This document shows positions 19,853-63,554 of a stretch of 64,000 nt of DNA, one piece after another. The position numbers were made by a program, and so were the translations under genes. The first letter of the stretch is position 1. Every line of letters begins with the position of its first letter. The stretch comes from a bacterium (lineage in GTDB: Bacteria > Patescibacteriota > Minisyncoccia > Phycocordibacterales > Phycocordibacteraceae), in the NCBI GenBank assembly GCA_037200965.1, contig JBBCGK010000001.1:576001-640000 (forward strand), read 5' to 3'. Under the pieces are notes generated by a model that saw only the letters and a program-made list of their open reading frames with translations, was not told the DNA's origin and ran no database searches.

Positions 19853-20161
19853 ATGCATAAGATAGTCGCTTCTTTTTGCGCCGACGGGCGGGAAATCCTG
19901 ACCCCCGAGGTCAGAAAGGAAGCTCGCACAATCGGGCGGGCGCTGAAGAAGAGAGCGCCCCTTACGGGCTACATGGTTGTGGCAACCGGGAAAGGGATTC
20001 GGACATTTTCAGTTCTCCATGTTCCGAACATTAACCGGCTCAGTCTCGAAGGGGGCGGGCGCGTGTCGGTTTGGTGGCGCTCCAGTCGCAACGATGCGGA
20101 TACCATGTTCAAGCAATTGCTCGGTCTGCCCGAGGTCAGCTGCTGGGTGCTGACACTCTGA
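19853..20161 (+). CDS. hypothetical small protein
   Basis: SD GGAGG 5 nt before the ATG. It is followed by a perfect 9-bp-stem hairpin, GACCCGCGG-CTGGTG-CCGCGGGTC. Confidence 0.35.
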   Translation: MHKIVASFCADGREILTPEVRKEARTIGRALKKRAPLTGYMVVATGKGIRTFSVLHVPNINRLSLEGGGRVSVWWRSSRNDADTMFKQLLGLPEVSCWVLTL

Positions 20162-20247
20162 GTGTTCGAACGCCAGACAATGACGACCCGCGGCTGGTGC
20201 CGCGGGTCGCTAATTATTGTGCGCACATCGGTGCTACACTTCCCCAT

Positions 20248-21168
20248 ATGAATGCCGAGCAGCTCAAGCGGCAATTTCTCGAATACATCGAAATCGAGCG
20301 AGGCCGGAGCGTGAAAACGGTCGAGAACTACGACCGCTACCTTTCGCGCTTTATCAAACAGGCGGATATAAAAGACCCTTCCGATATTACCGAACCGAAA
20401 ATCCGCGAATTCCGCATGTGGCTCAACCGCCAGTCGGGCACCGGACGGGACTCGATGAAGCGCCGCACCCAGAACTATTACCTCATCGCGCTCCGCGCAT
20501 TCCTCAAATACCTCCGGAGGCTCGAGATCCAGACCATAGCCCCCGAGCGCATCGAACTCGCGAAGGTGCCGGAGCGGCAGATCGACCTTATAACCTCGGC
20601 GGAGCTCAGTCGCCTTATAGACTCCCCTGCCGAGGCGCTCAAAACGGAAAAAGACCCGCACGTGCGCCGTACCCTCCTTCGCGACCGCGCAATCATGGAA
20701 CTTCTCTTCTCCACGGGCCTGCGTATCGCCGAGTTGTGTTCCCTCAATAACGATCTCGATCTTGGAAGGGACGAATTTTCCATACGAGGCAAAGGCGACA
20801 AAGTCCGCGTGGTATTCCTCTCCCCTGCCGCCAAGGAGGCGGTACGCGAATACCTCAAGGCTCGCGCTGATATGGAGGAGGCGCTCTTCGTCGACGGCCG
20901 CCCGAAGAAGCTCCACCGCATCACTCCCCGCGACGTGCAGCGGCACCTCAAGGCGTATGCCGCCCGGGCCGGTATCACGAGCAAAGTGTCTCCCCATACC
21001 CTTCGGCACGTCTTCGCGACTGATCTTCTAAGCAACGGCGCGGATATCAGAAGCGTCCAGCAGCTCCTCGGCCACGCCTCCATCATCACGACGCAGATCT
21101 ACACGCACGTTACCGACTCGCACTTGCGGGATGTGCATAAGAAGTTTCATAGCAAAAACCGCGAGTAG
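20248..21168 (+). CDS. tyrosine recombinase XerC/XerD family
   Basis: Motifs HTLRHVFATDLLSNGADIRSVQQLLGHASIITTQIYTHV. The start was chosen at the internal ATG (MNAEQLKRQFLEYIEIERG). Confidence 0.8.
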   Translation: MNAEQLKRQFLEYIEIERGRSVKTVENYDRYLSRFIKQADIKDPSDITEPKIREFRMWLNRQSGTGRDSMKRRTQNYYLIALRAFLKYLRRLEIQTIAPERIELAKVPERQIDLITSAELSRLIDSPAEALKTEKDPHVRRTLLRDRAIMELLFSTGLRIAELCSLNNDLDLGRDEFSIRGKGDKVRVVFLSPAAKEAVREYLKARADMEEALFVDGRPKKLHRITPRDVQRHLKAYAARAGITSKVSPHTLRHVFATDLLSNGADIRSVQQLLGHASIITTQIYTHVTDSHLRDVHKKFHSKNRE

Positions 21169-21172
21169 TTGT

Positions 21173-21865
21173 TTAGGAAGAAGGAAGGCCTCTCGGGACT
21201 GCATCGAAGTGTTCTATGCCCTCATATTCTTTTATATACCTGGCAAGCCGCTTCGTAAGCGGGAGAACAACCATTTCACAGAGTATCACCGCCATCCAGC
21301 TGACAGTCGCTGCGGAAGCCATAAGCGCAAGCGGCAGGATACCCGCGAATGCGATCCCATAGAAGAAGAGCACGTTCACTATCTGTGCTACCGCTACCGA
21401 CGTAAGAGCCCTACCGTAGAAGTACCGAGCCGTGAAATGTACCTTCAAGCGCGACATGACGTATGAGTTGGTGAGTTCTGTGACAAAGTACGCAATAATT
21501 CCCGCAGTGGTTATGCGCGGAACTTGGGAGAAGAGAGTGACGAACGCCGAGTTATTCGCGTAACCTGCCGCAGGCGGGAGGAATACGGCGAGTTCTATGA
21601 AAATGGTATAGACGATAAGACCTCCGAGCCCGACCCACAGAAGTCGTCTCACTCGCCGATAGCCGTATACCTCGGCAAGAATGTCAGCAACGATAAGCGA
21701 CAAGACATAGCTGATTTGCGAACCGACTATCGAGATCCCGAAAAAGTTGACGAACTTGAGATTAAGAACTTCGGTAACAAGCATGAGCGCCATCATAGGC
21801 ATGGCGAGGTACACCAGCGCTTTTGGCTGCCAGGTGTCGCCGACCGCAACCTTTAATTCCTTCAT
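21173..21865 (-). CDS. queuosine-precursor transporter (YhhQ/DUF165 family)
   Basis: Polytopic membrane protein with VADILAEVYGYRRVRR and FVTELTNSYV. Confidence 0.65.
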   Translation of the reverse strand: MKELKVAVGDTWQPKALVYLAMPMMALMLVTEVLNLKFVNFFGISIVGSQISYVLSLIVADILAEVYGYRRVRRLLWVGLGGLIVYTIFIELAVFLPPAAGYANNSAFVTLFSQVPRITTAGIIAYFVTELTNSYVMSRLKVHFTARYFYGRALTSVAVAQIVNVLFFYGIAFAGILPLALMASAATVSWMAVILCEMVVLPLTKRLARYIKEYEGIEHFDAVPRGLPSS

Positions 21866-21981: not shown

Positions 21982-22728
21982 ATGCAAAACCGGGAATCGC
22001 TCAGAAAAATGCTCATACGCTCGGGCCTTAACGATCACGAAGCCGTAGTGTATCTTTCGATGCTTGAACTCGGCCCCTCGACCGTGCTCAAAATCTCCCG
22101 ACAGTCGGGGGTAAAACGAACAACCATTTACGCCGTTATAGAGTCCCTGCGCGCCAAAGGACTGGTAGGGATTGAGGAGCCGGGTCTCAAGCGCATATAC
22201 GTAGCGGAGAATCCGACGCGTCTTGAACGCATACTCGATGAACAGAAGCATGCCCTTCAGTCGTTTTTTCCCGAACTTCAGGCACTCTATTCGCTGCGCG
22301 GCAATAACTCAATAATCCGTTATTACGTCGGTACCGAGGCGATGAGGAGCGTCTACGACGAACTTCTCGCGGAACTCAAAAGCGGTGACGACTATTATGT
22401 CTTTGGGGACCCCGAGCGGTGGGATGCGTTCGATAAAGACTATTTCAAGTCTTTCATTGCTCGCAGGCTGCGGATCAATCTCAAGGCGAAGATCGCGCTC
22501 ATACCCTCAGAAGTTGCGAAAAGTTATAAGCTAAATGAGAAGAATTTTCGGGAAGAGGTTCGCTTGCTTCCGAAAGGCACGCGGCTTGATGCAAATATGC
22601 TGATAACGCCTCGGAAAATCGTAATTCACCCGCTCACCTATCCCATTACGACCATTGTTATTGAAACAGACGCCTTGGTTCGTATGCAGCAGGAGCTGTT
22701 TATGGTGACGTGGGAAGGACTCATATAA
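21982..22728 (+). CDS. TrmB-family transcriptional regulator
   Basis: Sequence SGLNDHEAVVYLSMLELGPSTVLKISRQSGVKRTTIYAVIESLRAKGLV. Confidence 0.8.
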   Translation: MQNRESLRKMLIRSGLNDHEAVVYLSMLELGPSTVLKISRQSGVKRTTIYAVIESLRAKGLVGIEEPGLKRIYVAENPTRLERILDEQKHALQSFFPELQALYSLRGNNSIIRYYVGTEAMRSVYDELLAELKSGDDYYVFGDPERWDAFDKDYFKSFIARRLRINLKAKIALIPSEVAKSYKLNEKNFREEVRLLPKGTRLDANMLITPRKIVIHPLTYPITTIVIETDALVRMQQELFMVTWEGLI

Positions 22729-26570: not shown

Positions 26571-27374
26571 GTGATATTCAGCCGCACGGAAGACCTCGAA
26601 GACCGTATCATCGAACTCCTCCTTGAGGGTCGTTTGAGTATCAAATCGATGCACGCCCGGCTGGTCTTTCCTGAGAAATCGCTCTCGCTTCGCGCTATTT
26701 ATAAAGCGACGGACAAACTCATCGCGGCGGGCGTGCTCATTAAAACCGGGAAGCGGCTGATGGTGGACGAAGAATGGGCGCGAAGGGTAGGGGAGCGACT
26801 TCGTCCTGTCCCGGTCGCGGCGCCCTCAGTCGGGGAGAAATTTTCCCATACCTTTACATCGATCGAACACCTCGATGCCTTCTGGAAGACAGTGGTCCTC
26901 CCTATTGAGGAATCGGTTCCGAACCCCGAAGTCTTCTTCTACAACCCGCACGATTTCTGGGCATATATGCCCGAGCGCAAGGAAAGCGAGGAGGCGTATT
27001 ATCGGCATTTCGCTAAGGTGGGGCGCCACGGCTTTTTTATCGTAGGAGGGGAGTCTGAGGCGGACAAGGAATTTAAGCGGGAATACCAAGGCGAATACCT
27101 TCAAATAGATACAAGAAATATCCTATCCCTTCGCCGAAGTGACCATGTGACCGTTATAGGCTCTCTTATCGTCACGGTACGGCTCCCTAAGGTATCAGCG
27201 ACGCGGATCGATAAGCTCTATGAATCGAACAGGCCGATAAAGGACACACTTCCCGAGCTTCTCCCCATCTGTCGGGCGTTGGGGAAGATTCGCTTCACCC
27301 TTGAAAACGACCCCTTGAAGGCAAAGAAGCTCAGAAAGCTTCTTGCGAGGAACTTCTATTTTCCGAAAACGTAG
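26571..27374 (+). CDS. uncharacterised winged-helix regulator-like protein, paralog family X (2 of 3)
   Basis: 267 aa, homologous to 12985..13788 and 62739..63554. Confidence 0.55.
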   Translation: MIFSRTEDLEDRIIELLLEGRLSIKSMHARLVFPEKSLSLRAIYKATDKLIAAGVLIKTGKRLMVDEEWARRVGERLRPVPVAAPSVGEKFSHTFTSIEHLDAFWKTVVLPIEESVPNPEVFFYNPHDFWAYMPERKESEEAYYRHFAKVGRHGFFIVGGESEADKEFKREYQGEYLQIDTRNILSLRRSDHVTVIGSLIVTVRLPKVSATRIDKLYESNRPIKDTLPELLPICRALGKIRFTLENDPLKAKKLRKLLARNFYFPKT

Positions 27375-29478: not shown

Positions 29479-30804
29479 CTAGTCGGCCAGCGTGATGATT
29501 CGGTCGTTGAGAATAAGCCGATCTCTGAGGTGCTCCAGCAGCTCCCGCTTTTCCTCTCTCGTGCCGTTCTTCAGCAGATACTTGGCATACTTGCGTATGT
29601 CCATCTCCTTGGCCTCGATGGTTTCTTTGGTGCCCTCCACCTCCGCCCGCAGCTTGTTGTATCGGGACACCTCCCGCTCAATGAGGTGTCGCGCCCCGAT
29701 CTCGTCAAGGGAGATGCGGTCTATCATGGTGGCGAGCTGGTCGAGTACTTTCTCCTCCCGCAGATACGGGTTCTTGCACTGGGTATCCTTGGCCCGGGAG
29801 CAGGAATAATACACATAGGAGACGGGCTCGCCGGTACTCAATATCTTCTGCTTCTCCTGTGCCGTTATGCCGCTCCCGCAGTACCCGCACAGCAGGAGCT
29901 TGGTGAAGTTCCATTCTTTGAAGCGGTGCTTGGGGCGGTTCTCCTCGGCGATCTTTTCCTGCACGGCTTGGAAGAGTTCCTGGGTGATAAGCGGCGTATG
30001 TTTGCCGGTATACCAGTTTCCCGAGCCTCTCGGATACTCGAACACGCCGCAATAGAAGGGGTTCTTGAGCATTTTGTATAGCGTCGAGAGATTCATGCTC
30101 TTGCCGATGCGCGAGGCGAACTGCACATCCCTCTTCAGCCACCCGTGTACCTTGCGGCCGCTCCAGCGCTCGATCCCGACTTTCTCGAAGACCTGTTTAA
30201 TGATTGGCGCTCTAATAGGGTCCACCAATATCTCGCAGCGGTGATCCTTCCGAGAATCGTTGAGGTATCCCGTGGGCGCGATGCCGGGCCACAGGCCCAT
30301 CTCGGCCCTTGCACGTAGCCCGCGCTTCACATTGATGCGCTTGTTATCGTTCTCAAGCTTCGCTTGGCTCCCAAGAATCATCAGCAAGAACTTCTCGTTC
30401 GGGTTGTTGCCGAACCGCTGCCCATATGTGCGTATGTCCACCAAGTGCCTGCTATCCATTAAGTCCACGATGCGGCCGAGGTCGCCTGCGTTGCGACTGA
30501 TGCGGTCCGGTGCCCAGGTTAAGATGCCGTTGAACTTTCCAGCCCTCAATTCGTCTACGATTTCATTGAATACCGGTCGCGCTCCGGCCTCCTTGGCCGA
30601 GTGCGACTCTCGCTTCACCTCGACAATCTCCAATTTCTCTTTCTCTGCGAGCGCCAACATCTCCTTGACCTGGCTCTCGATGCTCAAAACTTGCTGCTCC
30701 TCGCTCTCTGTACTTTTCCTCGCATACAAGCAGTACCGCACCGCCTGTACCTCCACCAAGGGAGGAGCCGCCCCAAATCCGCCCTGAATCATTGCTGTTT
30801 CCAT
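29479..30804 (-). CDS. large serine recombinase (resolvase-type catalytic domain + recombinase domain + zinc ribbon + coiled coil)
   Basis: Catalytic motif [16 protein letters not shown], a recombinase domain, CGYCGS...[12 protein letters not shown], and a long C-terminal coiled coil. Confidence 0.85.
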
Positions 30805-34660: not shown

Positions 34661-35434
34661 ATGTCAATAATTCTTGACCAAACGGATAGCAAGGAGTTGA
34701 TTGAAGGGCTTGAGACGCTGGGCCTGAACGCTAAGGAGGCACAGGTCTATCTGGCCCTTTTGCCCCGTCGGGACGTCGGTTCCTCGAAGATTGTCCTTGC
34801 GACAGGCCTTCATAAGCAGTTCGTATACAATGCAATCGAAAAACTGGAGCAATTAGGCCTCATAAAGCATGTCATACAGAACGGCCGGAAGAAGTTCAGT
34901 GCCAATCCGCCGAGTCGTCTCCTCTCTATCGTGGAAGAGAAGCGCCTTGCCGCTCAAAACATGGCGAAGCGCCTCCAGGAACGCTTTATCGGCGCGCATG
35001 AGCAGGATTTCGAAGTGTTCCAAGGAGATTCGGCCGTACTTGCCCACCATTACGATATGTTCGAACGCATCGAACAGGACCAGGAAGCGCTCGTGATATC
35101 GGGACCCACCGAGACATTCCTTAAGATTATCGGCCCGGACGAGAAGGATGTATTCGAGGAAACGCGCGTAGCGAAAGGCCTTCGCATCCGCTATCTGGGT
35201 ATGGAATCGATGCGCGAACGGCTCATCGAGACGAAAAAATGGCGCAAGCTCTTCGATTACCGCATCCTGCCGGGCGGACAATCGACCGGCCAGCTCGATA
35301 TCGATATCTGGCCGAACAACGTCACGTACAACCTTTTCGGTGATCCTCTGCTCTCCATCACGATTACGAACAAAGCGATGACCGATGGATACCGGGAGTT
35401 CTTCGAGTCGCTGTGGAAGCTCTCGAAACCATAA
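34661..35434 (+). CDS. TrmB-family transcriptional regulator
   Basis: Sequence LGLNAKEAQVYLALLPRRDVGSSKIVLATGLHKQFVYNAIEKLEQLGLI. A TTGACG-17-TATGCT promoter-like element lies upstream. Confidence 0.75.
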   Translation: MSIILDQTDSKELIEGLETLGLNAKEAQVYLALLPRRDVGSSKIVLATGLHKQFVYNAIEKLEQLGLIKHVIQNGRKKFSANPPSRLLSIVEEKRLAAQNMAKRLQERFIGAHEQDFEVFQGDSAVLAHHYDMFERIEQDQEALVISGPTETFLKIIGPDEKDVFEETRVAKGLRIRYLGMESMRERLIETKKWRKLFDYRILPGGQSTGQLDIDIWPNNVTYNLFGDPLLSITITNKAMTDGYREFFESLWKLSKP

Positions 35435-52439: not shown

Positions 52440-53702
52440 TCAGGCCGCAACCGAAAGCCTTTCGGCGACGCGCCTAGGCACGTCGCTGTAGAAGCGCTTC
52501 GGCAGGGATATGCCATCTTTCACGCACCCGTTGTTGAACTTGTTGATCTGGTAGTTCACGCTGCCTTGCCAGATATCAACCAGCGATGCATCCCGCACAT
52601 TCGGATGGACGACGAAGTCGGGTGTGTCGTTTCCGGGGCATCTCCAGACGGCACCATCGTAGTGCAGATAGAGTCCGTGCGTGAGCTGATTGCACGGAGC
52701 GATGCCGATGTAGGATGCGGCGCCTTCATGGTACAGCTGTTCAAGGGTCATGACGCCGCGGGTGATGGCCCAAGTGTAGACGTCGACGGCGAGGTCGAGA
52801 TAGTCGTTCTCGAACTTCTCATCCGCAGCCGACCTCACCAGCTTATGGCCCTTGCCGCTCACCATGGTGGGCGGCATCACAACGGGGATATTTCGTTCGG
52901 TTCCCCACTGATAGAGCTCGAACGCGCCATGTACGTTTTCGCCCGTAACCGGAGCGCAGGCGATCTCGAGGCGCTGATGCAGGAGGTCGCCGTTCATCCC
53001 GAGTCCGCAGAGGCGCTCGATGGCGAGGTTCCGCGCCGCGTGATAGTCGAACCTGATATCGCGGAACTCGCGCAAGTTCTGCGGAATGAAGCGATTTTCA
53101 AGCTCGGGATCGAACGACCGTGCGCCGACGAGGAACGTGGTGTTTGGATATGCCGCAAGACGCCGGGTCAGGTCCTCCGATCCGATCCCGTGATAGTGCC
53201 GCGACAGATGGTCATTGCCCATGATTGCCGCCTTGGTGAAGATACCGGCGATGATGTTCCTTTTCGCCAGCTCATCGAGGATGAAGAAGAGCTTTGAATT
53301 CGCCAGCAGTTCTCCGGGACCGAGAAACTTCATCGACTCGAGCCCGAGCAGTTTCGCCTGGTCGACAACCCGCATGACTTCAGGAAGAGTCATGATCGGA
53401 TTGACCAATTCGGCGTTGTTGAAGCAGCCGGGACAGGCGTGCGGACACGGATAGTTCTTCACGAACGTGTCCTTCGCCTCTTTGGAACCGGGCGCATGCG
53501 CGTTGACCTTGGCCGCAAAACCGGCCTCGGGGATATTGAGATCGAGGGTAAGCATTTTCTTTACGCGCTTGCCTTCAATCTCAACGCTTTCCCCGATACG
53601 GCTTTCAGGGAAGCTCCATTTATACACCATCAATGCGTAGCCGTTCGGGATCTGGCCCTTGGGCGGCAGAATGGGCACAACGGCAGGGAATATGTTTTTC
53701 AT
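52440..53702 (-). CDS. radical SAM protein with Cys-rich C-terminal (SPASM/twitch-like) region
   Basis: Motifs CPHACPGCF (CxxxCxxC + aromatic) and GPGELL. C-terminal cysteines (APC, WRC, GCV). Confidence 0.7.
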   Translation of the reverse strand: MKNIFPAVVPILPPKGQIPNGYALMVYKWSFPESRIGESVEIEGKRVKKMLTLDLNIPEAGFAAKVNAHAPGSKEAKDTFVKNYPCPHACPGCFNNAELVNPIMTLPEVMRVVDQAKLLGLESMKFLGPGELLANSKLFFILDELAKRNIIAGIFTKAAIMGNDHLSRHYHGIGSEDLTRRLAAYPNTTFLVGARSFDPELENRFIPQNLREFRDIRFDYHAARNLAIERLCGLGMNGDLLHQRLEIACAPVTGENVHGAFELYQWGTERNIPVVMPPTMVSGKGHKLVRSAADEKFENDYLDLAVDVYTWAITRGVMTLEQLYHEGAASYIGIAPCNQLTHGLYLHYDGAVWRCPGNDTPDFVVHPNVRDASLVDIWQGSVNYQINKFNNGCVKDGISLPKRFYSDVPRRVAERLSVAA

Positions 53703-53874: not shown

Positions 53875-54678
53875 ATGATTAAACTCATGAAAAAAAGACA
53901 AGAGGACGCGTCAGAAACGCTTCTGTCTTTAGGGCTTTCAAGAAGGGAAGTAGGAGTGTATATCGCGCTTTTAGAGCTTGGACACGGGACGGTCACCCAG
54001 ATATCAAGAAAGGCGGGTATAAATAGGACGACTGGTTACGATATCCTTGATGCGTTAGCGCACAAGAACCTCGCGCGGCTCTCCGGTAAGGAGCCAAAGG
54101 AAGAATACGTGGCTGAATCTCCGGAAAAGCTCGTTACGCTGCTTGATGAGAAGCTGGCAGAGACACAAAAGCAGCTGATCCTTGCGAAGGAATTTCTCCC
54201 GCAACTCAAAGCGATGCATACGGTTCAGGATCGTCCGCAAGTACGGTTCTATGAGGGTGTCGAAGGACTCAAAGAAGTATATGAAGACACTTTGACTTCC
54301 CCGGAACCGATTCGTGCGTACGCCTGTATCGACGACATGCACAAGGCGCTCCCCAACTACTTTCCCGAGTACTATAAACGTCGCGCGCGCAAAGGCATCT
54401 CGATACGCGGCATAGTCCCCGAGACAAAAACGGCGATGGCGCAGGCTGCGTTTAATGCGGAGGAAAAACGCGATATAGCGTTCGTGCCTGCCGATAAGTA
54501 TTACTTCTCTCCGGAAATAAATATTTACGCTAATAAAGTTATGGTGGCATCGTGGCGCGAGAAGCTCGGCATCATCATAGAAAGCGCCGAGATCGCTGAT
54601 GCCATGAAAAAGATATATGAGCTGGCGTGGGCAGAAGCCAAGCGGCTTGATGCGGCGAACTCACCGGTGTCGACATAG
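53875..54678 (+). CDS. TrmB-family transcriptional regulator
   Basis: Sequence LGLSRREVGVYIALLELGHGTVTQISRKAGINRTTGYDILDALAHKNL. Confidence 0.75.
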   Translation: MIKLMKKRQEDASETLLSLGLSRREVGVYIALLELGHGTVTQISRKAGINRTTGYDILDALAHKNLARLSGKEPKEEYVAESPEKLVTLLDEKLAETQKQLILAKEFLPQLKAMHTVQDRPQVRFYEGVEGLKEVYEDTLTSPEPIRAYACIDDMHKALPNYFPEYYKRRARKGISIRGIVPETKTAMAQAAFNAEEKRDIAFVPADKYYFSPEINIYANKVMVASWREKLGIIIESAEIADAMKKIYELAWAEAKRLDAANSPVST

Positions 54679-54714: not shown

Positions 54715-55854
54715 ATGAAAAGCGTTCGCGATATTCCGGTGCTTGAAAACGTACCGGTATTCGTGCGCTCGTCGCTCAATGTTCCGTTGGTAGATGGAAA
54801 GGTAGCGAACGCGTACCGCATCAAGCACGCGCTTCCCACCATCGAATTCCTCCGGAAAGAGAACGCGCGCATTGTTATCGGAAGCCATATCGGGGAAGCG
54901 GGAACCGAGACGCTCGAGCCCGTATACCTCGCGCTCAAGCAGATGCTCCCCGGCGTCTCGTTCTGCCCGGTCTCTACGGGTCCCCGGGCGCGCGAAGCGG
55001 TGCGGGCGCTTCTGCCGGGCGAAGTTCTCGTGCTTGAGAACCTGCGCAGGAATCGGGGGGAAGTGATGAACGACATGGCGTTTGCCGAAGCGCTTGCCGA
55101 ACTCACGGATGTCTTTGTCGAAGATGCGTTCGATACCTGCCATCGCGAGCACGCATCGATAGTAAGCCTTCCGACGCTCCTGCCTTCGTATGCGGGGCTT
55201 CAGCTCATCGAGGAGATCGCCGAACTCTCGAAGGCGCTCAAACCGAAGGCCCCGTCGCTCGCGGTCATCGGCGGCGCGAAGTTCGGCACCAAGGAGCCCG
55301 TGATCCGCAAGCTTCTCTCCCTCTACACGCACGTGTTTGTGGGCGGCGCGCTTGCGAACGATTTTCTCGCAGCTAAGGGCTATCCCGTGGGAAAGTCGCT
55401 CGTTTCGGGCGGAGATGCCGCCGCTACTAAAGAACTCTTGGTGGATAAGAAACTGGTGCTTCCGCTCGATTCGCTCGTCTGCAAATCCGGCGGCGCGAAA
55501 ACGCCCGGACAGGCACGTATCGCGGGACTTGATGACGTTCAGGAAGACGAAACCATCCTCGATCACGGCCCGAAGACGAATGAAATGCTCGCGAGATTGG
55601 CAGCCGGCGCGAAGACGATTCTCTGGAACGGGCCGCTCGGCCAGTATGAGGCGGGCTTCACGGAAGCGACGGATGCGCTTGCGGTCGCCATCGCCGACTC
55701 AGGCGCGGAGTCATACATCGGGGGAGGAGACACGGAAGCTGCCATCGACTCGCTCGGCCTCAACCGCCGATTCACGTTCATATCGACCGGCGGCGGCGCG
55801 ATGCTTTCGTATCTTGCGAAGGGGACGCTTCCGGGGATTGAGGCGCTGGGCTAG
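54715..55854 (+). CDS. pgk: phosphoglycerate kinase
   Basis: Full-length match to the PGK domain architecture (GSHIGEAG...STGGGAMLSYL). Confidence 0.9.
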   Translation: MKSVRDIPVLENVPVFVRSSLNVPLVDGKVANAYRIKHALPTIEFLRKENARIVIGSHIGEAGTETLEPVYLALKQMLPGVSFCPVSTGPRAREAVRALLPGEVLVLENLRRNRGEVMNDMAFAEALAELTDVFVEDAFDTCHREHASIVSLPTLLPSYAGLQLIEEIAELSKALKPKAPSLAVIGGAKFGTKEPVIRKLLSLYTHVFVGGALANDFLAAKGYPVGKSLVSGGDAAATKELLVDKKLVLPLDSLVCKSGGAKTPGQARIAGLDDVQEDETILDHGPKTNEMLARLAAGAKTILWNGPLGQYEAGFTEATDALAVAIADSGAESYIGGGDTEAAIDSLGLNRRFTFISTGGGAMLSYLAKGTLPGIEALG

Positions 55855-56111
55855 GTTCCGTACAGGTTATGGTGCGTGTCGATGTCCGTGAGGACGATGG
55901 CGTCACCTACCATCTCGTAGATGAGTCGCCAATCGCCGGTCACGTTGATGCTTCGAAAGCCCGTCCATTCTCCCCGCAAGGGATGGTTGTTAAGTAGCGG
56001 GTTTTGAGGATCGGCCATAAACAGCCTAAGGCGCTCGACGAGCGCGCGGCGGATACCAGCCGGTAGGCGCGATACTCGTTTCTCAAACTGTCGTTTGCGG
56101 AGAACCTGCAT
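55851..56111 (-). CDS. type II toxin, RelE/YafQ family
   Basis: Sequence LLNNHPLRGEWTGFRSINVTGDWRLIYE. Confidence 0.65.
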   Translation of the reverse strand: MQVLRKRQFEKRVSRLPAGIRRALVERLRLFMADPQNPLLNNHPLRGEWTGFRSINVTGDWRLIYEMVGDAIVLTDIDTHHNLYGT

Positions 56112-56113
56112 GA

Positions 56114-56383
56114 CTATGCGCGTATGGCGCGCGCGAATTCTTCAAGGGACGAAGCGATGAAATGCTCCGGATGTTCGCGGTATTCGCGGCTAAGCGCTTC
56201 CCATTCGCGCAGCTTCTCCGGACGCGGTACAAGCGATACCTCGAACCGCCCGTCGGAAACGAACTGCGCGAGCTGCGCGTTCATAACGGTAGTAAGGGGA
56301 ATGCCGAGCTTCTGCGCGGTGCGCTTCGCGGCATCCCGGAGCTTTTTGTCAGTCTTGATGGTGATAGTTGTTTTCGTATTCAT
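56114..56383 (-). CDS. type II antitoxin, DinJ/RelB family
   Basis: Sequence ITIKTDKKLRDAAKRTAQKLGIPLTTVMNAQLAQFV. It lies directly upstream of the toxin gene. Confidence 0.6.
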   Translation of the reverse strand: MNTKTTITIKTDKKLRDAAKRTAQKLGIPLTTVMNAQLAQFVSDGRFEVSLVPRPEKLREWEALSREYREHPEHFIASSLEEFARAIRA

Positions 56384-56530
56384 ACCTATATACTACTTTG
56401 GGTATGAGCGTGCTGTCAATCCAATGCAGTTCAAATCTCGTCCGCGAGCCCGCGCACTTCACAAAACCGCCTATCTGGGCGGCTTTGTGTTTAAGAGAAC
56501 GGAATGTTTAAACCAGGTATACTTTTAGTT

Positions 56531-56890
56531 ATGGAAGACTGCATTTTCTGCAAAATAGTGAACCGAGAATCACCTGCCTCGGTAGTGTTTGAAGACGATA
56601 CCTCTATGGTAATTGAACCCATTGATCCTATTTCAAAAGGACATGTACTCGTGCTGCCCAAGAAACATTTTGTGAATATGCTCGATACCGACGACGAGAC
56701 GTTATCTCATCTTGCTGTCGTTTCCAAGAATGTCGGGCACACAGTGCTTGGAAAAAACAACGCTCACTCAATGAACCTTCTCCATGCCGCTGGGATGGAG
56801 GCGCAGCAATCCGTATTCCATCTCCACTTCCATATCGTGCCACGGTATGAGAATGATGGGCTGGATCTCTGGTTTAGGAACAGTCTCTAG
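56531..56890 (+). CDS. HIT-family (histidine triad) protein
   Basis: Sequence MEDCIFCKI...HLHFHIVPR. Confidence 0.8.
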   Translation: MEDCIFCKIVNRESPASVVFEDDTSMVIEPIDPISKGHVLVLPKKHFVNMLDTDDETLSHLAVVSKNVGHTVLGKNNAHSMNLLHAAGMEAQQSVFHLHFHIVPRYENDGLDLWFRNSL

Positions 56891-56991
56891 GATTAGAGAG
56901 GATACTGGAATCGAACCATTCTCTCAGAAAGCACAGTAAGCTGAGCTAACACAATTTCGGTATAAGAATATAGCCCCTACACTCTCTTATC

Positions 56992-57504
56992 TTGGTTCCA
57001 ACAGCGTCTACGAGCTCGCGCACTCTGGACGATAGTGGAACTGCTATAGTTCCTGATATGGAAATTCCACAGATTAAGATGATTTACGCTTATCCGTTAG
57101 ACGAGGACAGGCGACGGTTTTTCTCTCAACAAAACTTAGGCCGGTATCCCTCCGTTGAAGAGGTCAGGGATACGACTTCTCACTGGAGAAATGTATGGAA
57201 TGAAACCAATAGAGACAACAGGATCGTCTTAACGTTACAAGAGTTAACGAAGAGAGTGCCAACGCGGAGCTTAGAGTGTTTCATTATCGGAGGAGGCATT
57301 AAAGCCATGTCTACCCCCTTCATTATTTCAGTCAGAAAAAGAAATGGGGAAGAGCGCTCAGATCAAGACTTCATCGAGACGCTAATTCACGAAGCAGCGC
57401 ATATTTTCGTATCAGACGTTCCGGCCTACTTCGACTCTCTTCGCGAGAAATATTCCGGGAGCCGCTATCTGCCCGGAATCATATACTCATTTACGCGCTA
57501 TTAG
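56992..57504 (+). CDS. hypothetical protein with HExxH motif (LIHEAAHIF), putative small metallopeptidase
   Basis: 170-aa ORF. The start is uncertain. Confidence 0.4.
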   Translation: MVPTASTSSRTLDDSGTAIVPDMEIPQIKMIYAYPLDEDRRRFFSQQNLGRYPSVEEVRDTTSHWRNVWNETNRDNRIVLTLQELTKRVPTRSLECFIIGGGIKAMSTPFIISVRKRNGEERSDQDFIETLIHEAAHIFVSDVPAYFDSLREKYSGSRYLPGIIYSFTRY

Positions 57505-57793
57505 AGAAACTATACTTAGACCTATTTAATTCTCGCCCAAGTGACTTTGCTAACAGTGACCTGCCGGACAGTTATATCCGAGCGATAGAAATCGTTAAGC
57601 AAGAGGGTTACGAAAAGCTGATTGAAGAATACCAGTCCTTCGTGTAGTAGTTCCGAGGTTGTCCGTAAGGTCGCGACCCTCCCATCTGTTTCACAAATAT
57701 GCCCGAATCTTCCCCGCATTCCCCTCGAAATCCATTTTGTCCCCTTCCGCTTGGCCTGGGAATATCCAGATATTCAATCGGTGGCAACGCGGT

Positions 57794-57848
57794 AGTAGCG
57801 TATCTTGCATGGGAAACGCTTCCGGGGACTGAGGCGCTGGAATCCTAG
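57794..57848 (+). repeat. degenerate duplicate of the pgk 3' terminus (would encode ..AYLAWETLPGTEALES*), direct repeat of 55805-55856
   Basis: CGTATCTTGC...ACGCTTCCGGGGA[T/C]TGAGGCGCTGG is shared with the pgk end (25 bp with 1 mismatch inside a ~45-bp ~85% match). Confidence 0.6.
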
Positions 57849-58615
57849 AGAGCCTTCCACATAAAGGCATGCATATTTTTAAACAGATTAGCGATATCCT
57901 TGTTTTCGATAACAACCGCAGATAAGTCCCGGAGACTTATAAGCGCGACCTTTTCGTTGAAAACAAGAACGTCGACATTGGACGTAAACCATTCGGGGAG
58001 CCGTTTGTCTGATTTATTTTCATATCCGTTCTTCTCGCGCAGAGCTCGCAGTTTTTTGTAGGTTTTAGCGCTTGCGATAAACAAATCCTTCGCCTTAAAC
58101 GCGTGATCGCTATTTGTCTTGTCGAAATCGCCGTATTCTGCTTCGGTGAAGTTTTCGAAGAAAATATCGGCGGGGAAGATGGAATACGTATCGCCGAGCG
58201 TTTTAAACAGTTCCTCGTAAATATTCTTGATCGCACGCTTTCCTTCGAAGAAGCCGACCTTGGGCTTGTTCGTCGCGCGTTCATATATCTTGCTCATGAC
58301 GGCGGCAGTCGAGTCGAATGCTAGAAGCTCCTTCCTAAGATTTGCGGCGACGGTCTTCGGATCGACTGCCGCGTACAGCGTGCGCTTGCCGATAGGTATC
58401 CGAGTAATGAAACCCTTTTTGAGCAGAAGATCCAGATATTCGTAGCAGGTAGCGCGCCGCACGTCCGCTTGGCGGACTATATCCGCGACTCCCATGCGGC
58501 TTTTCCCGAGAAGCGACACGTAAATCACCGCAGCCTTATCCGGCAAACCGATTCGTTCCAACTCCTTTATGAACGGGATATGTTCCATAAGTTCATATAA
58601 GCTGACTTGGAACAA
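57845..58615 (-). CDS. TrmB-family transcriptional regulator
   Basis: Sequence IGLPDKAAVIYVSLLGKSRMGVADIVRQADVRRATCYEYLDLLLKKGFI. Confidence 0.7.
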   Translation of the reverse strand: MFQVSLYELMEHIPFIKELERIGLPDKAAVIYVSLLGKSRMGVADIVRQADVRRATCYEYLDLLLKKGFITRIPIGKRTLYAAVDPKTVAANLRKELLAFDSTAAVMSKIYERATNKPKVGFFEGKRAIKNIYEELFKTLGDTYSIFPADIFFENFTEAEYGDFDKTNSDHAFKAKDLFIASAKTYKKLRALREKNGYENKSDKRLPEWFTSNVDVLVFNEKVALISLRDLSAVVIENKDIANLFKNMHAFMWKAL

Positions 58616-58720
58616 ATGTCAACGAAAGCGACATATTTTACCAGTACCCTCTAAACCACCCTTCACTTTATAAGTCTATTAATAAATATAAGCGTTATTC
58701 CAGACACAAGTACCCATTTA

Positions 58721-59245
58721 TTGAATACTGGGCGGGCTGGTATGGCGCTAAAATCAAAGACAACTCTGCAAACCAAACGCGGCATTTTCGAAGTCGGATA
58801 TTACGTTGTAGACGGGAATCCTTATGTTTCTTTCCGCTACGGGGATGTTTCCCAGGGCAGACCAATAGTGCGATTACAGTCGGCTTGCCTTTTCGGGGAG
58901 GCTTTCGGTTCGCTTGAGTGCGAGTGTGGCGCGCAACTTGCCAAGGCTCTGGACGCCATTGTTAGCCGCGGGGCGGGTCTTGTGCTCTATGCCTATGCGG
59001 AAGGTCGTGGCGCAGGGCTTGAGAAAAAGATAGAAGCTATGGAGATTCAAAGGACGACCGGATGCAATACAGTCGAAGCTTTTGACTCGCTTGGTCTTGA
59101 GAAGTCCGACTACCGGGATTATCAGGCTGAGGTGAACATCCTCACCGAGTTAGGCACAAGCCTCCATATCTGCTTGTTTTCGAAAAATCCAGCTCGATAT
59201 CAAGCGCTCAAAGACGCAGGCTTCGATGTAGATCCATATGAGTAG
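58721..59245 (+). CDS. GTP cyclohydrolase II (RibA)-family protein
   Basis: Motifs RLQSACLFGEAFGSLECECGAQLAKAL (zinc Cys triad) and EGRGAGLEKKIEA...NTVEAFDSLGLEKSDYRDY. The start may be the internal MALKSK. Confidence 0.75.
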   Translation: MNTGRAGMALKSKTTLQTKRGIFEVGYYVVDGNPYVSFRYGDVSQGRPIVRLQSACLFGEAFGSLECECGAQLAKALDAIVSRGAGLVLYAYAEGRGAGLEKKIEAMEIQRTTGCNTVEAFDSLGLEKSDYRDYQAEVNILTELGTSLHICLFSKNPARYQALKDAGFDVDPYE

Positions 59246-60140
59246 CTCGTCTGAGCTTATGTATCGTTGGCTTCGCGTATCTCCTACCGGAGACGGATAT
59301 ATCGAGCCCGATTATTACGATCAGCTTCTCAGAAAGTATATCTTTGATGGTAAAGAGGATACCGAGTACTTCCGAGAACATCTTGCAAAAGCACCTTCTC
59401 ATTCAGCATTTCTTGAGCTTGGCCCCGGGACCGGACGAGCGACAAATATACTATTCGCATCGGTTCCGGACATACATTCGCTTACGCTCGTTGATTTAAG
59501 CAGCCGTATGCTTAGTAGCTGCAAACAAGTTTTCACCCGCAAAGAATGCATTTCTTATGTCGTTTCCGATTCCATAGATTTCCTGTTGTCAGTGCAGTCG
59601 TCGTACGACTATATCTATAGCCTGTGGAGTCTTTCTCACTCCATACACAAGAATCTTGAAGACTTGGGAAAAGAAGACGGAAAAGCAAAAGTACGAGAGG
59701 CGCTCTTAAAAATGGTACGGGAGAATCTCAACCGGAACGGCTCTTTATTCCTGATACATTTCGATTCTTCCTCTCCCGAGCAGGAAATATCTATTCGGCA
59801 AAGGCGGCGCGATTCCCGTGACCGGAAATTGTTTGCAGATGTCTCCAAACAAAGTCCCTCTAAGGAAATACTCGACGAGTGCCTTGAAGAATTAAGGCGC
59901 TCGGGTGAGATCTGTTTTGAATGTGAGAGGCATGTAGGTACAGCGCTCGAATTCAGTTCGCTCGACGAAGCGCTCGAGTATTATCTTAATTTCCATATGG
60001 CTTCGTATTTCAATACCTCAAGTTCGATCGACGACATCTTGAAGGAGCTTTCTCAGGATTTACTGGAACACCAAGGGAGTGATGGAAAGATACGGATCGT
60101 TCCCGGTTGCTTCATCTACAAAGCAAGTAAGCCTGGTTAA
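59238..60140 (+). CDS. class I SAM-dependent methyltransferase
   Basis: Motif LELGPGTGRAT. Overlaps the upstream gene by 8 nt (ATGAGTAG). Confidence 0.6.
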   Translation: MSSSSELMYRWLRVSPTGDGYIEPDYYDQLLRKYIFDGKEDTEYFREHLAKAPSHSAFLELGPGTGRATNILFASVPDIHSLTLVDLSSRMLSSCKQVFTRKECISYVVSDSIDFLLSVQSSYDYIYSLWSLSHSIHKNLEDLGKEDGKAKVREALLKMVRENLNRNGSLFLIHFDSSSPEQEISIRQRRRDSRDRKLFADVSKQSPSKEILDECLEELRRSGEICFECERHVGTALEFSSLDEALEYYLNFHMASYFNTSSSIDDILKELSQDLLEHQGSDGKIRIVPGCFIYKASKPG

Positions 60141-60176
60141 ATGTTGGTTGCCAGAAAGCTCCCTATATAAAAATCA

Positions 60177-60998
60177 CTAAGATACTTGGCTATTCATCAG
60201 ATCGCGCAAAAGCTCGTTCGCATCTATAAGCTGCGAATGCTCCTGCATAAATTCAAAGGCGGAAAGAATCATTTTTTGTATCTCCGAGTTCTTGACTTCG
60301 ACAATCAATCCTTCGCTTAAGGAGAAGAGATATAAGGAATCCTTAAATATCCAGCACTGGCCGCCATGCCTGAAGTACTTTGGATCAATAACATTGACTC
60401 TCGCGGTGCGTCCTTCGAAATCTTTCACCCATTGTATTCCTAGAGAACGCGCTTGTTCCTCAAGCCACCCGATTGGCAAGACAGCTTCGGTAATCGTACG
60501 GCCCTTCTTTATATCGCGGTTTATTCGGTTTGTTTCGGAAACGGTGAACAGGGTATTCCAACTCTTGGTCGCGCGGTCACCTTGGAAGCCCCAGAAGAAC
60601 CGTTGGTTCTTGTTCGCTTCAAAGAGCTCAAGCATGACCTTCCTAATTGCTTCTTTTCCCCGATAGATACATACCGTTGAGTCAGCGCGACCGTGAACCT
60701 GTTGGTTTCCTTCGGGTATTTGCAGCAAGAAACGCTTGAAATCGTATAGTGCCTGATCAATAGTATCTCCGCTATGCAATTGCCACCGCTTGCGTCCTTT
60801 GGCGATGCGCGAAACGGCCAGCCCTCGTTTATGCAGATTCGCCAAAATCGCATAAATGGCAGAGCGGGAGATTCCCGTCTGGCGAGTCAGCTTTAAGGGC
60901 GTATCCGCACCGTCGCGAAGCGCCAAGAGAATCTTCCTTTCCTTGATTGAGAGGCCGAGTATTCGCAGATCATCGTGAAGTGCCATACGGCAAAACAT
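60177..60998 (-). CDS. TrmB-like transcriptional regulator
   Basis: Sequence LGLSIKERKILLALRDGADTPLKLTRQTGISRSAIYAILANLHKRGL. Confidence 0.65.
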   Translation of the reverse strand: MFCRMALHDDLRILGLSIKERKILLALRDGADTPLKLTRQTGISRSAIYAILANLHKRGLAVSRIAKGRKRWQLHSGDTIDQALYDFKRFLLQIPEGNQQVHGRADSTVCIYRGKEAIRKVMLELFEANKNQRFFWGFQGDRATKSWNTLFTVSETNRINRDIKKGRTITEAVLPIGWLEEQARSLGIQWVKDFEGRTARVNVIDPKYFRHGGQCWIFKDSLYLFSLSEGLIVEVKNSEIQKMILSAFEFMQEHSQLIDANELLRDLMNSQVS

Positions 60999-61169
60999 AG
61001 CAAAAGGTATATAACCTGTCCACTTTCTTAGACAGATATATAAAGCATAAAAACCCTTATATACAGCTTATTTCCAGTATTACTCAACTTAGAGAATACC
61101 TTACTATACTGTCAATGTCTTTAGGATCATTCTTATAGAGGGAACTAGAACTTTATATGGGAGACCGCT

Positions 61170-62318
61170 ATGGCTTGCGAAACGAACGAAGTGCCGCAGG
61201 AAGTGACCGCGATCGATCGTTGGATTGACCACGTATTGCACGGAGAAAAGGATACTGCGATTCCAACGTTACTTGGTCGGGAAGTTCCACCTCTTTTGTC
61301 GTGGATAGTGCGGGGCGGATGCGCGATACAGTGCCGCCACTGCATCTTTCCTCACGAAGGCCCGAAAACCTTCGGCGTGCAAACGGGCGAGGAAGCGCTT
61401 CTCGGCATTCTCCGCCAGTTGTCCGGTTCGCGCCACCTCATTCACGAAGGAAGGCAGCTACTTCCGTGGCAGGTACCGATCTTGGCGGCTGCAGGCCGCG
61501 CAGGACACGGAGTATCGCTTATCAATAACGGACAATATGCAGCGCCGAATATGCTGGCGCTATGCGAGCGAGAGGGGCTCGCAATCGACGCGCTTGACGT
61601 GTCGGTCGACGGTACGAAAGATATCCACAATGGACAGCGCGCGAGCAATAATGCCTGGGACATCGCAATGAAAGGGATTGTGCATGCCAAGCACATACTC
61701 AAGACCGATGGCAAACTTACTTCTCTCTTCACGCTCACCACGCTCAATCACGCGCACTTAGCCGAAACGGGAGAGATGCTCACGCAGGTGGTCGATGAAT
61801 GGCACGTGACGACGATGTCGTTACGGCCGGGGATCGAGCACCTGCGGGCAGGCGATCGCGAACTCGCCTTAGCGCTTGAACAATTGCTCGGCGGCAACTT
61901 CGCGAAACCAGTGTTCCTGCGTACCTATTCTCTCGACGATTTTGTCGCTCTGCTTGGAATTCTCGGAAAAGAAACGGCAAATAGGGTTCTCAGGAACGCG
62001 CTGGTGACTTATAACGCCATCGTACTCGATATCGGAATACCCCTGTACTTCTATCCTAAGTCCCTGCAGGTGAATGAAACGTTAGTGATCGACGCGGATG
62101 GGTGGTGGCGTCTGCCGTTTTGCATCCATCACTCGCTTGCGGAACTGCGGGCGGGAGAGGATGAGATGGGCAAGGATATTTCGCATTTCAATGTCGTCCC
62201 GGTACTGCCGTGCGTGGATGTCCCAACTCTCCATGCCAAGGCCGCATCGAGATGGTGGGTCAGTATAGGCCGGGATTGTTTATCGCTTGAGCGCCAGGCG
62301 CTCGAAGCGTTTCTCTAA
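61170..62318 (+). CDS. radical-SAM-like enzyme (CxxxCxxC: GGCAIQCRHCIF) with C-terminal Cys residues
   Basis: N-terminal Cys triad in typical rSAM spacing. Three further Cys near the C-terminus. No other family assignment is possible by eye. Confidence 0.5.
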   Translation: MACETNEVPQEVTAIDRWIDHVLHGEKDTAIPTLLGREVPPLLSWIVRGGCAIQCRHCIFPHEGPKTFGVQTGEEALLGILRQLSGSRHLIHEGRQLLPWQVPILAAAGRAGHGVSLINNGQYAAPNMLALCEREGLAIDALDVSVDGTKDIHNGQRASNNAWDIAMKGIVHAKHILKTDGKLTSLFTLTTLNHAHLAETGEMLTQVVDEWHVTTMSLRPGIEHLRAGDRELALALEQLLGGNFAKPVFLRTYSLDDFVALLGILGKETANRVLRNALVTYNAIVLDIGIPLYFYPKSLQVNETLVIDADGWWRLPFCIHHSLAELRAGEDEMGKDISHFNVVPVLPCVDVPTLHAKAASRWWVSIGRDCLSLERQALEAFL

Positions 62319-62738: not shown

Positions 62739-63554
62739 TCAACGACGAATATGAAAATCCTTGGATATACGGCGTTTCCACGCGGCGGCTTTCCCAGGGT
62801 CTTTAGCAATTTTTACCTTTGATGTAACTTCGTGATCTAACTTCTTCAACTTATCCTTGGCGCGCTCAAGGTCGGTTTCCGTTTTAAAGAGAAGTTCGAC
62901 TGCCTTTCGAGCTTTGGGATTAAAACGCACTTCAATCACCCATTCGTGGATTACGGCAATAAACACTTCTTGACGAACTTTCGGCGAGTACGATACCTCA
63001 ACGTTAGAGAATGCGAGCTCCCGGGTTGCGAGCTTGTCGAGCGCCGAAGAGGAGCCGATGAGAAGATAGGCTCTTCTTCCTTTTGCTCCAAGGAGCATAT
63101 CGTGGCTTTTGTCGCTATCGCCACGCAGTACACTCGACCAATTATGCGGATTAAAGAGGTAAAGGTGCTGGCGGTGAGGAACACCCTTTTCAATTACTGA
63201 AAACAGATGGGACCATATCCGATCCATAGCAGTAAGACCATGAATGGTAAGCGTGATCTCTTCTCCGCGTTCAAGCTGACTGAAGTCGCCGAGGATGGAA
63301 CTGTTTTTATATTCGACAAGCTGGCGAAGCTGCTTTAACCAATGTTCGCTTACCGATACGGCAGAACGGTAGACGATAACCTTCTCTTGCGCTCTCAGCT
63401 TTCTAAGCGCCCTATAAAAACCCTGCTTCGTGCAGGCGTGCTTCCTCCTCAGGCCTTTAAGGAGCTCAGTAGTCGTAACCGCTCCTTTTTGAAGTACAAA
63501 AGTAAGGACTGAATCTTCAAGGCGGCTGCCTAACAGTTGCATAGCAGTAAACAA
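62739..63554 (-). CDS. uncharacterised winged-helix regulator-like protein, paralog family X (3 of 3)
   Basis: 271 aa, homologous to 12985..13788 and 26571..27374 (FNPHNWSS, IGSSSALDK). Confidence 0.55.
   Translation of the reverse strand: MFTAMQLLGSRLEDSVLTFVLQKGAVTTTELLKGLRRKHACTKQGFYRALRKLRAQEKVIVYRSAVSVSEHWLKQLRQLVEYKNSSILGDFSQLERGEEITLTIHGLTAMDRIWSHLFSVIEKGVPHRQHLYLFNPHNWSSVLRGDSDKSHDMLLGAKGRRAYLLIGSSSALDKLATRELAFSNVEVSYSPKVRQEVFIAVIHEWVIEVRFNPKARKAVELLFKTETDLERAKDKLKKLDHEVTSKVKIAKDPGKAAAWKRRISKDFHIRR

Follow-up and report, generated by a model that had tools for sequence, protein, structure and literature searches.

A GTP cyclohydrolase II homologue with methionine at the tyrosine switch, overlapped by a methyltransferase gene, as a candidate non-riboflavin system in a Patescibacteria genome

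Homologues of GTP cyclohydrolase II (GCHII; RibA in riboflavin synthesis) that have been diverted from riboflavin are a known theme, and a tyrosine-less GCHII in an operon with a methyltransferase appears to be a new variation on it. We describe such an operon in a 64-kb window of a Minisyncoccia genome (the window being the whole stretch of DNA analyzed, positions 576,001 to 640,000 of contig JBBCGK010000001.1, assembly GCA_037200965.1; coordinates below count from its first nucleotide). Among the described systems, Spoonamore and colleagues reportedly found in 2006 that SCO6655 of Streptomyces coelicolor, in which Met120 replaces a tyrosine, makes 2-amino-5-formylamino-6-ribosylamino-4(3H)-pyrimidinone 5′-phosphate (FAPy), and that its M120Y variant regains deformylation. 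The toxoflavin cluster ToxABCDE holds a GCHII paralogue (ToxB) together with an S-adenosylmethionine (SAM) N-methyltransferase (ToxA) and yields a methylated GTP-derived product. One of three S. coelicolor RibA homologues is credited with “a completely new function unrelated to flavin biosynthesis” (PMC13151069). FAPy can also lead to riboflavin through a formamide hydrolase, a route present in archaea and in Sinorhizobium meliloti (PMC13028884), and in Chlamydia RibA and TrpF have been shown to yield H2NMP (Adams et al. 2014, PMC4161248). For the operon in the window, the best-supported reading is a non-riboflavin one that leads to a methylated GTP-derived product.

The original prediction had placed a GCHII-like gene and a SAM methyltransferase gene between 58721 and 60140, outside any riboflavin context, and had suggested that the pair makes a methylated GTP-derived metabolite. 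Both family assignments, the 8-nt overlap of the genes and the end of the interval were borne out, whereas the GCHII gene was found to start at ATG 58742 rather than at TTG 58721. The operon and its associated elements, which are shared by two short metagenome contigs (L008 and L019), are as follows:

58742..59245, + strand: GCHII homologue of the Met type, 167 aa (Pfam and residue alignment)
59238..60140, + strand: class I SAM-dependent methyltransferase, 300 aa (Pfam Methyltransf_25/11/12, AlphaFold2 model)
59238..59245, + strand: 8-nt overlap ATGAGTAG, in which methyltransferase ATG 59238 meets GCHII stop TAG 59243-59245; overlapping start conserved in L008 and L019
57845..58588, − strand: TrmB-family winged-helix regulator, 247 aa from ATG 58588 (Pfam PF01978; the open reading frame reaches TTG 58615)
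58617..58633, no strand assigned: imperfect inverted repeat TGTCAACGAAAGCGACA (TGTC-N9-GACA), intergenic, conserved in the window, L008 and L019
58701..58729, + strand: promoter-like element CAGACA-17 nt-AATACT, conserved in the same three loci

The open reading frame at 58721-59245 (+) matched Pfam PF00925 (GTP_cyclohydro2; E=3.8e-33, 114.8 bits against a cut-off of 23.3) over profile positions 5-160 of 165, which places its product in the GCHII superfamily. The 167-aa form, agreeing with the public record (P0001, annotated “GTP cyclohydrolase II”), is the real GCHII, since TTG 58721 lies within a promoter-like block that is conserved among the window, L008 and L019. This protein carries the motifs LQSACLFGEAFGSLECECG, EGRGAGL and NTVEAF, in keeping with the zinc cysteine triad and EGRG/NTVEA core claimed originally, and its residues 17-163 aligned with residues 20-165 of E. 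coli RibA (PDB 2BZ0; phmmer E=2e-22). In that alignment, which had been suggested beforehand as a check, Cys49, Cys60 and Cys62 coincide with the RibA zinc ligands Cys54, Cys65 and Cys67, and RibA Arg49, the EGR motif residues Glu92 and Arg94, Asp126 and Arg128 (the counterpart of Arg125 in the window) are all retained. It also exposed a substitution on which the original prediction had not remarked: Met100 (codon 59039-59041) stands at E. coli Tyr105 (IEAMEIQR vs IRAYALQD). This change and the replacement of Lys154 by Arg152 are the only departures among the catalytic positions tested (key-residue string RCCCERMNDRR in the window vs RCCCERYDDRK in E. coli), so that the window GCHII combines a non-Tyr switch position with otherwise intact catalytic residues, the pattern taken as FAPy-type. 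Since Met100 occupies the place of Tyr105, the switch reported for SCO6655, the product of the window GCHII is probably FAPy rather than the riboflavin precursor DARPP. Searches of the open literature returned no explicit statement of this Tyr/Met switch. Furthermore, the protein scored under every curated NCBIfam RibA cut-off (NF001591, 119.1 vs 148 bits; TIGR00505 ribA, 100.6 vs 205.85 bits). Judged on sequence, it is outside the RibA equivalog, because it fails at both Tyr105 and the curated scores.

The substitution is shared widely among relatives. The 23 close homologues retrieved from 5.8 billion proteins all show Met, Leu or Ile in the switch column, and an HMMER search over 1.84 billion representatives (6112 matches, 20 with E<=1e-30) yielded nearest representatives whose 180 GCHII domains carry Met in 56, Ile in 23, Leu in 14, Val in 4 and Tyr in 78 cases; the highest-scoring relatives are almost all non-Tyr, and the non-Tyr clade makes up about 55% of the nearest clusters at 50% identity. 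When relatives with an intact cysteine triad were compared, a fused RibB, RibD or RibE domain was present in none of 93 non-Tyr proteins vs 28 of 76 Tyr-type proteins (Fisher p=7e-12). Likewise, Pfam and NCBIfam scans of ~55 open reading frames in the 64-kb window returned no RibB, RibD, RibE or RibH domain, and tblastn with the E. coli RibB, RibD, RibE and RibH sequences yielded no match at E<=0.01, either in the window or across ~100 related loci, including ±10 kb around roughly 50 Met-type GCHII genes (as a control, the queries did detect rib domains fused to Tyr-type relatives). The claims that the window holds no other rib genes and that the locus lies outside a riboflavin context thus stood. 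Most Met-type GCHII genes are solitary or, in particular lineages, syntenic with a gene of the sulfatase/phosphodiesterase type and a cysteinyl-tRNA synthetase gene. As a separate observation on the wider family, five proteins (P0166, P0170 of about 990 aa, P0173, P0204 and P0254) contain two or three GCHII-like repeats each, of which one in P0204 and one in P0254 lack the zinc cysteines and some in P0166 and P0170 are partial or altered at other key residues.

These results bear most directly on ordinary riboflavin metabolism, by which the gene would be a ribA, or would perform the FAPy step with a formamide hydrolase encoded elsewhere, and the methyltransferase would be an unrelated neighbor. 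Membership in the Pfam family with an intact zinc site, the public label and the existence of the FAPy and formamide hydrolase route in archaea and S. meliloti (PMC13028884) are consistent with this explanation; the Tyr105 to Met change with sub-threshold RibA scores, the lack of rib-domain fusions in non-Tyr relatives, the lack of rib genes in the window and near ~50 Met-type genes, and a methyltransferase junction conserved across diverged lineages argue against it, and we consider it highly improbable. A reading in which GTP is used outside riboflavin synthesis is strengthened by the same switch substitution, curated-score failures and missing rib fusions, as far as sequence comparison can indicate.

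The downstream gene encodes a Rossmann-like fold with a glycine-rich SAM motif, as in class I methyltransferases, and its AlphaFold2 model (predicted local distance difference test score, pLDDT, 93.9) has the class I fold. Its family is small and sharply bounded (22 clusters in 5.8 billion proteins; 40 loci among 185,579 species genomes) and is recognizable by the motifs LELGPGTGRAT, SLWSxSHSxH, HFDSxSxEQ, QSPSK, ALExxLNFHM and PGCFIY. Gene callers picked a later start, ATG 59259, in three of four records; in L008 and L019 the orthologous junctions carry ATGAATAG and lack a second ATG, which identifies the overlapping start as the conserved one, within an ATGARTAG junction common to the window and both contigs. 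Such an overlap would be the arrangement expected for translational coupling, and a consensus scan of 57400-61300 found no terminator between the two genes.

Four or five genes of this locus occur on three other public contigs. L008 and L019 each hold an opposite-strand TrmB-type gene, a 167-aa Met-type GCHII and the methyltransferase with its 8-nt overlap; among these two contigs and the window, the GCHII proteins are 55-62% identical and the methyltransferases 49-65%, and a junction common to three lineages at such identities has survived long divergence. A further contig, L020, is arranged differently: the regulator orthologue faces a 453-aa fusion of a Tyr-type GCHII with a C-terminal TIM-barrel domain of about 250 aa, followed by an MTS-type methyltransferase with an NHPF motif and then by a member of the window methyltransferase family (51-52% identity), the three genes being joined by 4-nt overlaps. 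On the basis of gene content and order, L020 is a second, independent architecture in which a GCHII is linked both to this methyltransferase family and to an orthologue of the regulator. At another locus, L022, the regulator orthologue and the methyltransferase are both present, and the interval that separates them contains no GCHII. Among named organisms, the closest relatives of the methyltransferase, of the regulator and of the protein family to which the L020 barrel domain belongs (family X) come from Patescibacteria or Minisyncoccia, which makes a host of the candidate-phyla-radiation type probable.

Taken together, we propose a dedicated route, unrelated to riboflavin, in which GTP is converted to FAPy and then to a methylated product under TrmB-type control, a proposal that we advance tentatively and hold to be possible at slightly under an even chance. 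Briefly, the TrmB-type regulator would control a two-gene operon for a methylated, ring-opened pyrimidine nucleotide. The GCHII, judged by its residues, would bind GTP, release pyrophosphate and open the imidazole ring at the zinc site; it would stop at FAPy, the formyl group staying in place and no DARPP being formed. The co-translated methyltransferase would then methylate this product or a close derivative, a step suggested solely by the conserved gene order, and the final product might serve as a precursor of a cofactor, as a signal or as an antimetabolite.

Several observations weigh against this proposal. At none of the 40 GTDB loci that carry a methyltransferase of this family does a GCHII lie within 10 kb, and 42 further Met-type GCHII loci all lack both the methyltransferase and X; the pairing does not extend beyond a narrow clade, and most members of either family occur without the other. 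The suggestion of a methylated GTP-derived metabolite accordingly gains from the conserved operon and the L020 architecture and loses from this narrow distribution. The link from Met to FAPy draws on one characterized enzyme, and FAPy could still feed riboflavin by way of a formamide hydrolase elsewhere in the genome. Compared with most relatives, the window GCHII and the two orthologues that share its operon arrangement (L008 and L019) are shorter by about 27 C-terminal residues, and this loss, together with the Lys154 to Arg change, could alter GCHII activity. The closest folds to the methyltransferase model are the carboxyl O-methyltransferases HvrF, BioC, JHAMT and Tam (template-modeling score, TM, about 0.55-0.6; identity about 15%), which counts against the proposed substrate because FAPy has no carboxylate; a ToxA-like enzyme ranks 33rd among the structural matches. 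The model resembles small-molecule methyltransferases, and its fold does not single out a substrate. Finally, in other phyla the family adjoins aminoacyl-tRNA synthetases and synthetase-like genes, so its substrate class may differ from the GCHII product. Such genes lie within 6 kb of the family in ~27 of 45 loci (L016, L022-L060), comprising methionyl-tRNA synthetase (MetRS, 8), arginyl-tRNA synthetase (ArgRS, 7), the Trp/Tyr type (5) and class II paralogues with a catalytic domain only (11), in hosts that include Patescibacteria, DPANN archaea, Alphaproteobacteria and an actinomycete, among others. MccF-like S66 peptidases, pyridoxal phosphate enzymes, nucleotidyltransferase fusions and ATP-grasp enzymes also occur near the family elsewhere, and an aldehyde-dehydrogenase-nucleotidyltransferase fusion is found both among these neighbors in other phyla and next to Met-type GCHII in L011, L063 and L064. 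The methyltransferase-synthetase arrangements look like small transferable biosynthetic or resistance cassettes.

It could therefore be that the two genes share regulation and not a substrate, the methyltransferase having as its substrate an amino acid, an aminoacyl compound or some other molecule with a carboxylate. The occurrence of most of its family without a GCHII, neighbors elsewhere such as MetRS, ArgRS, Trp/Tyr-type synthetases, class II paralogues, MccF-like peptidases and ATP-grasp enzymes, and the carboxyl O-methyltransferase fold matches speak for mere co-expression. We regard it as quite unlikely, given that two GCHII subtypes are tied to this methyltransferase clade in two architectures with the same regulator orthologue, and that the overlapping stop and start are conserved.

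A different use of the GCHII is indicated by its relatives. The closest full-length GCHII relative, P0002 (58% identity), is followed after 2 nt by a NADAR gene (PF08719, E=5e-24; L009 918-1340), and P0298 is a Val-type GCHII fused to a NADAR-like domain. These partners of non-Tyr GCHII support an explanation by guanine-nucleotide catabolism or sanitation, in which GTP or damaged GTP is destroyed, a NADAR/COG3236-type N-glycosidase recovers ribose 5-phosphate and the methyltransferase has a side role or none; the partnerships themselves hint that small genomes may have a path leading from GTP to ribose 5-phosphate. E. coli RibA reportedly has an 8-oxo-dGTPase side activity, attributed to Kobayashi in 1998, which we counted in favor of this explanation, as we did the solitary position of most Met-type GCHII genes in small genomes. 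In addition, COG3236 is cited, in a preprint and in PMC11188291, as an N-glycosidase that hydrolyzes the first riboflavin intermediates. The window, however, contains no NADAR gene, and catabolism leaves unexplained both the methyltransferase start locked onto the GCHII stop in three lineages and the L020 cluster with its two methyltransferases; we judge it improbable, to about the degree stated for mere co-expression.

The L020 fusion introduces a further possibility. Its C-terminal domain (2074-2850) is homologous to a free-standing family, X (hmmsearch E=1e-6), which comprises proteins of ~255 aa (P0046-P0165 among them) in more than 500 clusters, every one annotated “hypothetical” and lacking any Pfam domain. 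This is the single case of X fused to GCHII; X shares an operon with the same methyltransferase clade in L014 (3-467) and L021 (9157-9987), and probably does so on two further contigs too. The AlphaFold2 model of X (pLDDT 94.4) is a TIM barrel with best TM scores of 0.5-0.6 to MfnB/MJ1099, HisA and ribulose-phosphate epimerase, and X matches Pfam PRAI below threshold (E=0.0026-0.0096); the model suggests a phosphate-binding barrel that acts on a phosphoribosyl compound. An identification of X with TrpF was considered and was not established, the PRAI match being sub-threshold and the fold matches being to generic phosphate-binding barrels. On this basis, a pterin route that bypasses GTP cyclohydrolase I can be envisaged, in which GCHII and an X encoded elsewhere in the genome form a dihydroneopterin-type pterin that is then methylated. 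The GCHII-X fusion, the operons of X with the methyltransferase clade, the fold of X with its weak PRAI match (E=0.0026) and the RibA and TrpF precedent in Chlamydia (PMC4161248) agree with it. Yet X was missing from the 64-kb window and from all Met-type GCHII loci examined, the fused GCHII of L020 is of the Tyr type whereas that of the window is of the Met type, whose retained formyl group would block closure of the pterin ring, the evidence for X as an Amadori isomerase is below significance, and no fol or que genes were seen nearby. We find the pterin route very unlikely for the window.

Returning to the proposed FAPy-to-methylated-product route, its putative regulator is transcribed divergently from the operon and matched PF01978 TrmB with E=1.2e-12 (47.9 bits vs a cut-off of 25.6), while staying under the equivalog cut-offs of the sugar-sensing TrmB/TrmBL1. 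Orthologues occupy the same divergent position in L020 (55% identity over 96%), L022 (53.5%), L008 (62%) and L019 (60%). The TGTC-N9-GACA repeat is a candidate operator for this regulator. A block TTCAGACA...TTTATTGRATACTGG is conserved upstream of GCHII in the window, L008 and L019, and we infer that CAGACA-17 nt-AATACT acts as a −35/−10-like pair; it was read by eye and was missed by the consensus scan, whose minimum is 9 matches out of 12. Since the element ends 12 nt before ATG 58742, the leader would be very short. Across 57400-61300 the scan called fewer promoter-like sites than in shuffled sequence.

The operon lies in a block of lower GC content (56100-61200, 45-50% vs 56-62% in the flanks, adjacent to the phosphoglycerate kinase and triose-phosphate isomerase region), which also holds a HIT gene, a 170-aa orphan open reading frame, the regulator and the next TrmB-like gene, and whose composition is compatible with lateral acquisition. 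The features beyond the operon, with the TrmB-like paralogues of the whole window (among them the operon's own regulator), are:

60177..60998, − strand: second TrmB-like regulator (weak Pfam TrmB, E=9.2e-6)
61170..62318, + strand: radical-SAM-like protein with CxxxCxxC, 382 aa (Pfam Radical_SAM E=9.2e-5, below cut-off)
12985-13788, 15129-15875, 21982-22728, 26571-27374, 34661-35434, 53875-54678, 57845-58615, 60177-60998 and 62739-63554: TrmB-like paralogues

The regulator at 60177..60998 has no orthologue beside the other GCHII or methyltransferase loci. The radical-SAM-like gene at 61170-62318, whose NCBIfam matches are only weak and NirJ/AhbC-like, was rejected as part of the operon for lack of a homologue in any related locus, as were the radical SAM/SPASM gene at 52440-53702, the 170-aa open reading frame and the other TrmB-like genes, which likewise have no homologues there. 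A phage or mobile origin was set aside because neither family had relatives in the viral contigs scanned, and anti-phage defense because the PADLOC hits were limited to mad2, through a generic methyltransferase domain, and to weak helix-turn-helix matches.

At large, the window encodes many hypothetical proteins, mobile-element genes, triose-phosphate isomerase, phosphoglycerate kinase, NusA, ClpP, RNase Y and the CCA-adding enzyme. Its 64 kb include no fewer than nine paralogous TrmB-like regulators, each of about 250-270 aa; Pfam TrmB matches six of them (one marginally), the rest being recognized solely by mutual blastp, and several are divergently paired with an enzyme or transporter gene. 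One adjoins a Vut_1/YhhQ-type transporter (21173-21865, −; PF02592 E=4e-31), of a family that imports queuosine precursors, which are likewise GTP-derived. A UvrD-type helicase of 997 aa (7146-10139, −) has intein-splicing and Hint matches in mid-protein and probably contains an intein. Mobile-element genes include an IS-type transposase (rve; 11503-12405), a tyrosine integrase (20071-21168) and a large serine recombinase (29479-30804), and four tRNA genes are located between 25956 and 28675. Close to the upstream edge of the low-GC block are a YafQ/RelE-type toxin, preceded by an antitoxin-like open reading frame, and a HIT-family hydrolase (55851-56383, −, and 56504-56890, +), and a second HIT gene lies about 5 kb past the window end (L001 15462-15818).

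More broadly, the locus may represent the minimal, two-enzyme version of a modular pathway of the Patescibacteria type, which would assemble Tyr-less or Tyr-type GCHII, X, one or two methyltransferases and a dedicated TrmB-type regulator so as to produce from GTP a new methylated pyrimidine or pterin-like compound that serves as a cofactor, a signal or an antimetabolite, with the non-Tyr GCHII clade being distinct FAPy synthases mis-annotated as RibA; we rate this wider idea as unlikely. “GTP cyclohydrolase II” genes of this kind are counted as evidence for riboflavin biosynthesis in reconstructions of the candidate phyla radiation (CPR)/Patescibacteria; if the non-Tyr clade leads to FAPy, those reconstructions would be wrong, and the ultra-small carriers would hold an unrecognized GTP-derived metabolite. 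The system is also compact and testable, with two small soluble enzymes and the substrates GTP and SAM, and the L020 fusion would offer an initial clue to the function of a large TIM-barrel family whose members are all annotated as hypothetical.

Compared with known systems, the window GCHII shares with E. coli RibA (PDB 2BZ0/2BZ1) the fold family, the zinc ligands, the EGR motif, Arg128 and the Asp residues, and differs from it in Met for Tyr105, Arg for Lys154, ~27 fewer C-terminal residues, scores under the curated RibA thresholds, the lack of rib context and the operon with a methyltransferase. By mechanism the closest system appears to be SCO6655, reportedly another GCHII paralogue that has Met in the switch position and serves a non-riboflavin role, in an actinomycete rather than in a small-genome bacterium; to our knowledge, no methyltransferase partner has been reported for it. 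At the level of the cluster, the closest appears to be the toxoflavin-type pairing of a GCHII paralogue with a methyltransferase. The window is not a toxoflavin cluster, because it lacks ToxC, ToxD and the RibD-like ToxE; its neighbors are TrmB-like regulators, radical-SAM-like, HIT and hypothetical proteins, with no RibD homologue, so that of the original prediction the non-riboflavin role held up while the toxoflavin likeness fell away. Archaeal GTP cyclohydrolase III (ArfA) has the product predicted here, FAPy (PMC13028884), though it is of an unrelated fold and feeds riboflavin and F420 through a formamide hydrolase. The COG3236/NADAR pairs resemble the locus in having a non-Tyr GCHII in an operon (L009) or a fusion (P0298), with the difference that the window methyltransferase occupies the place that NADAR has in L009. 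In the Chlamydia bypass (PMC4161248) a (beta/alpha)8-barrel enzyme diverts the GCHII product, a possible parallel to the L020 GCHII-X; no barrel gene is present in the window, whose GCHII probably keeps the formyl group, and X is only a candidate isomerase. The bypass is thus a plausible model for the L020-type fusion and less so for the window.

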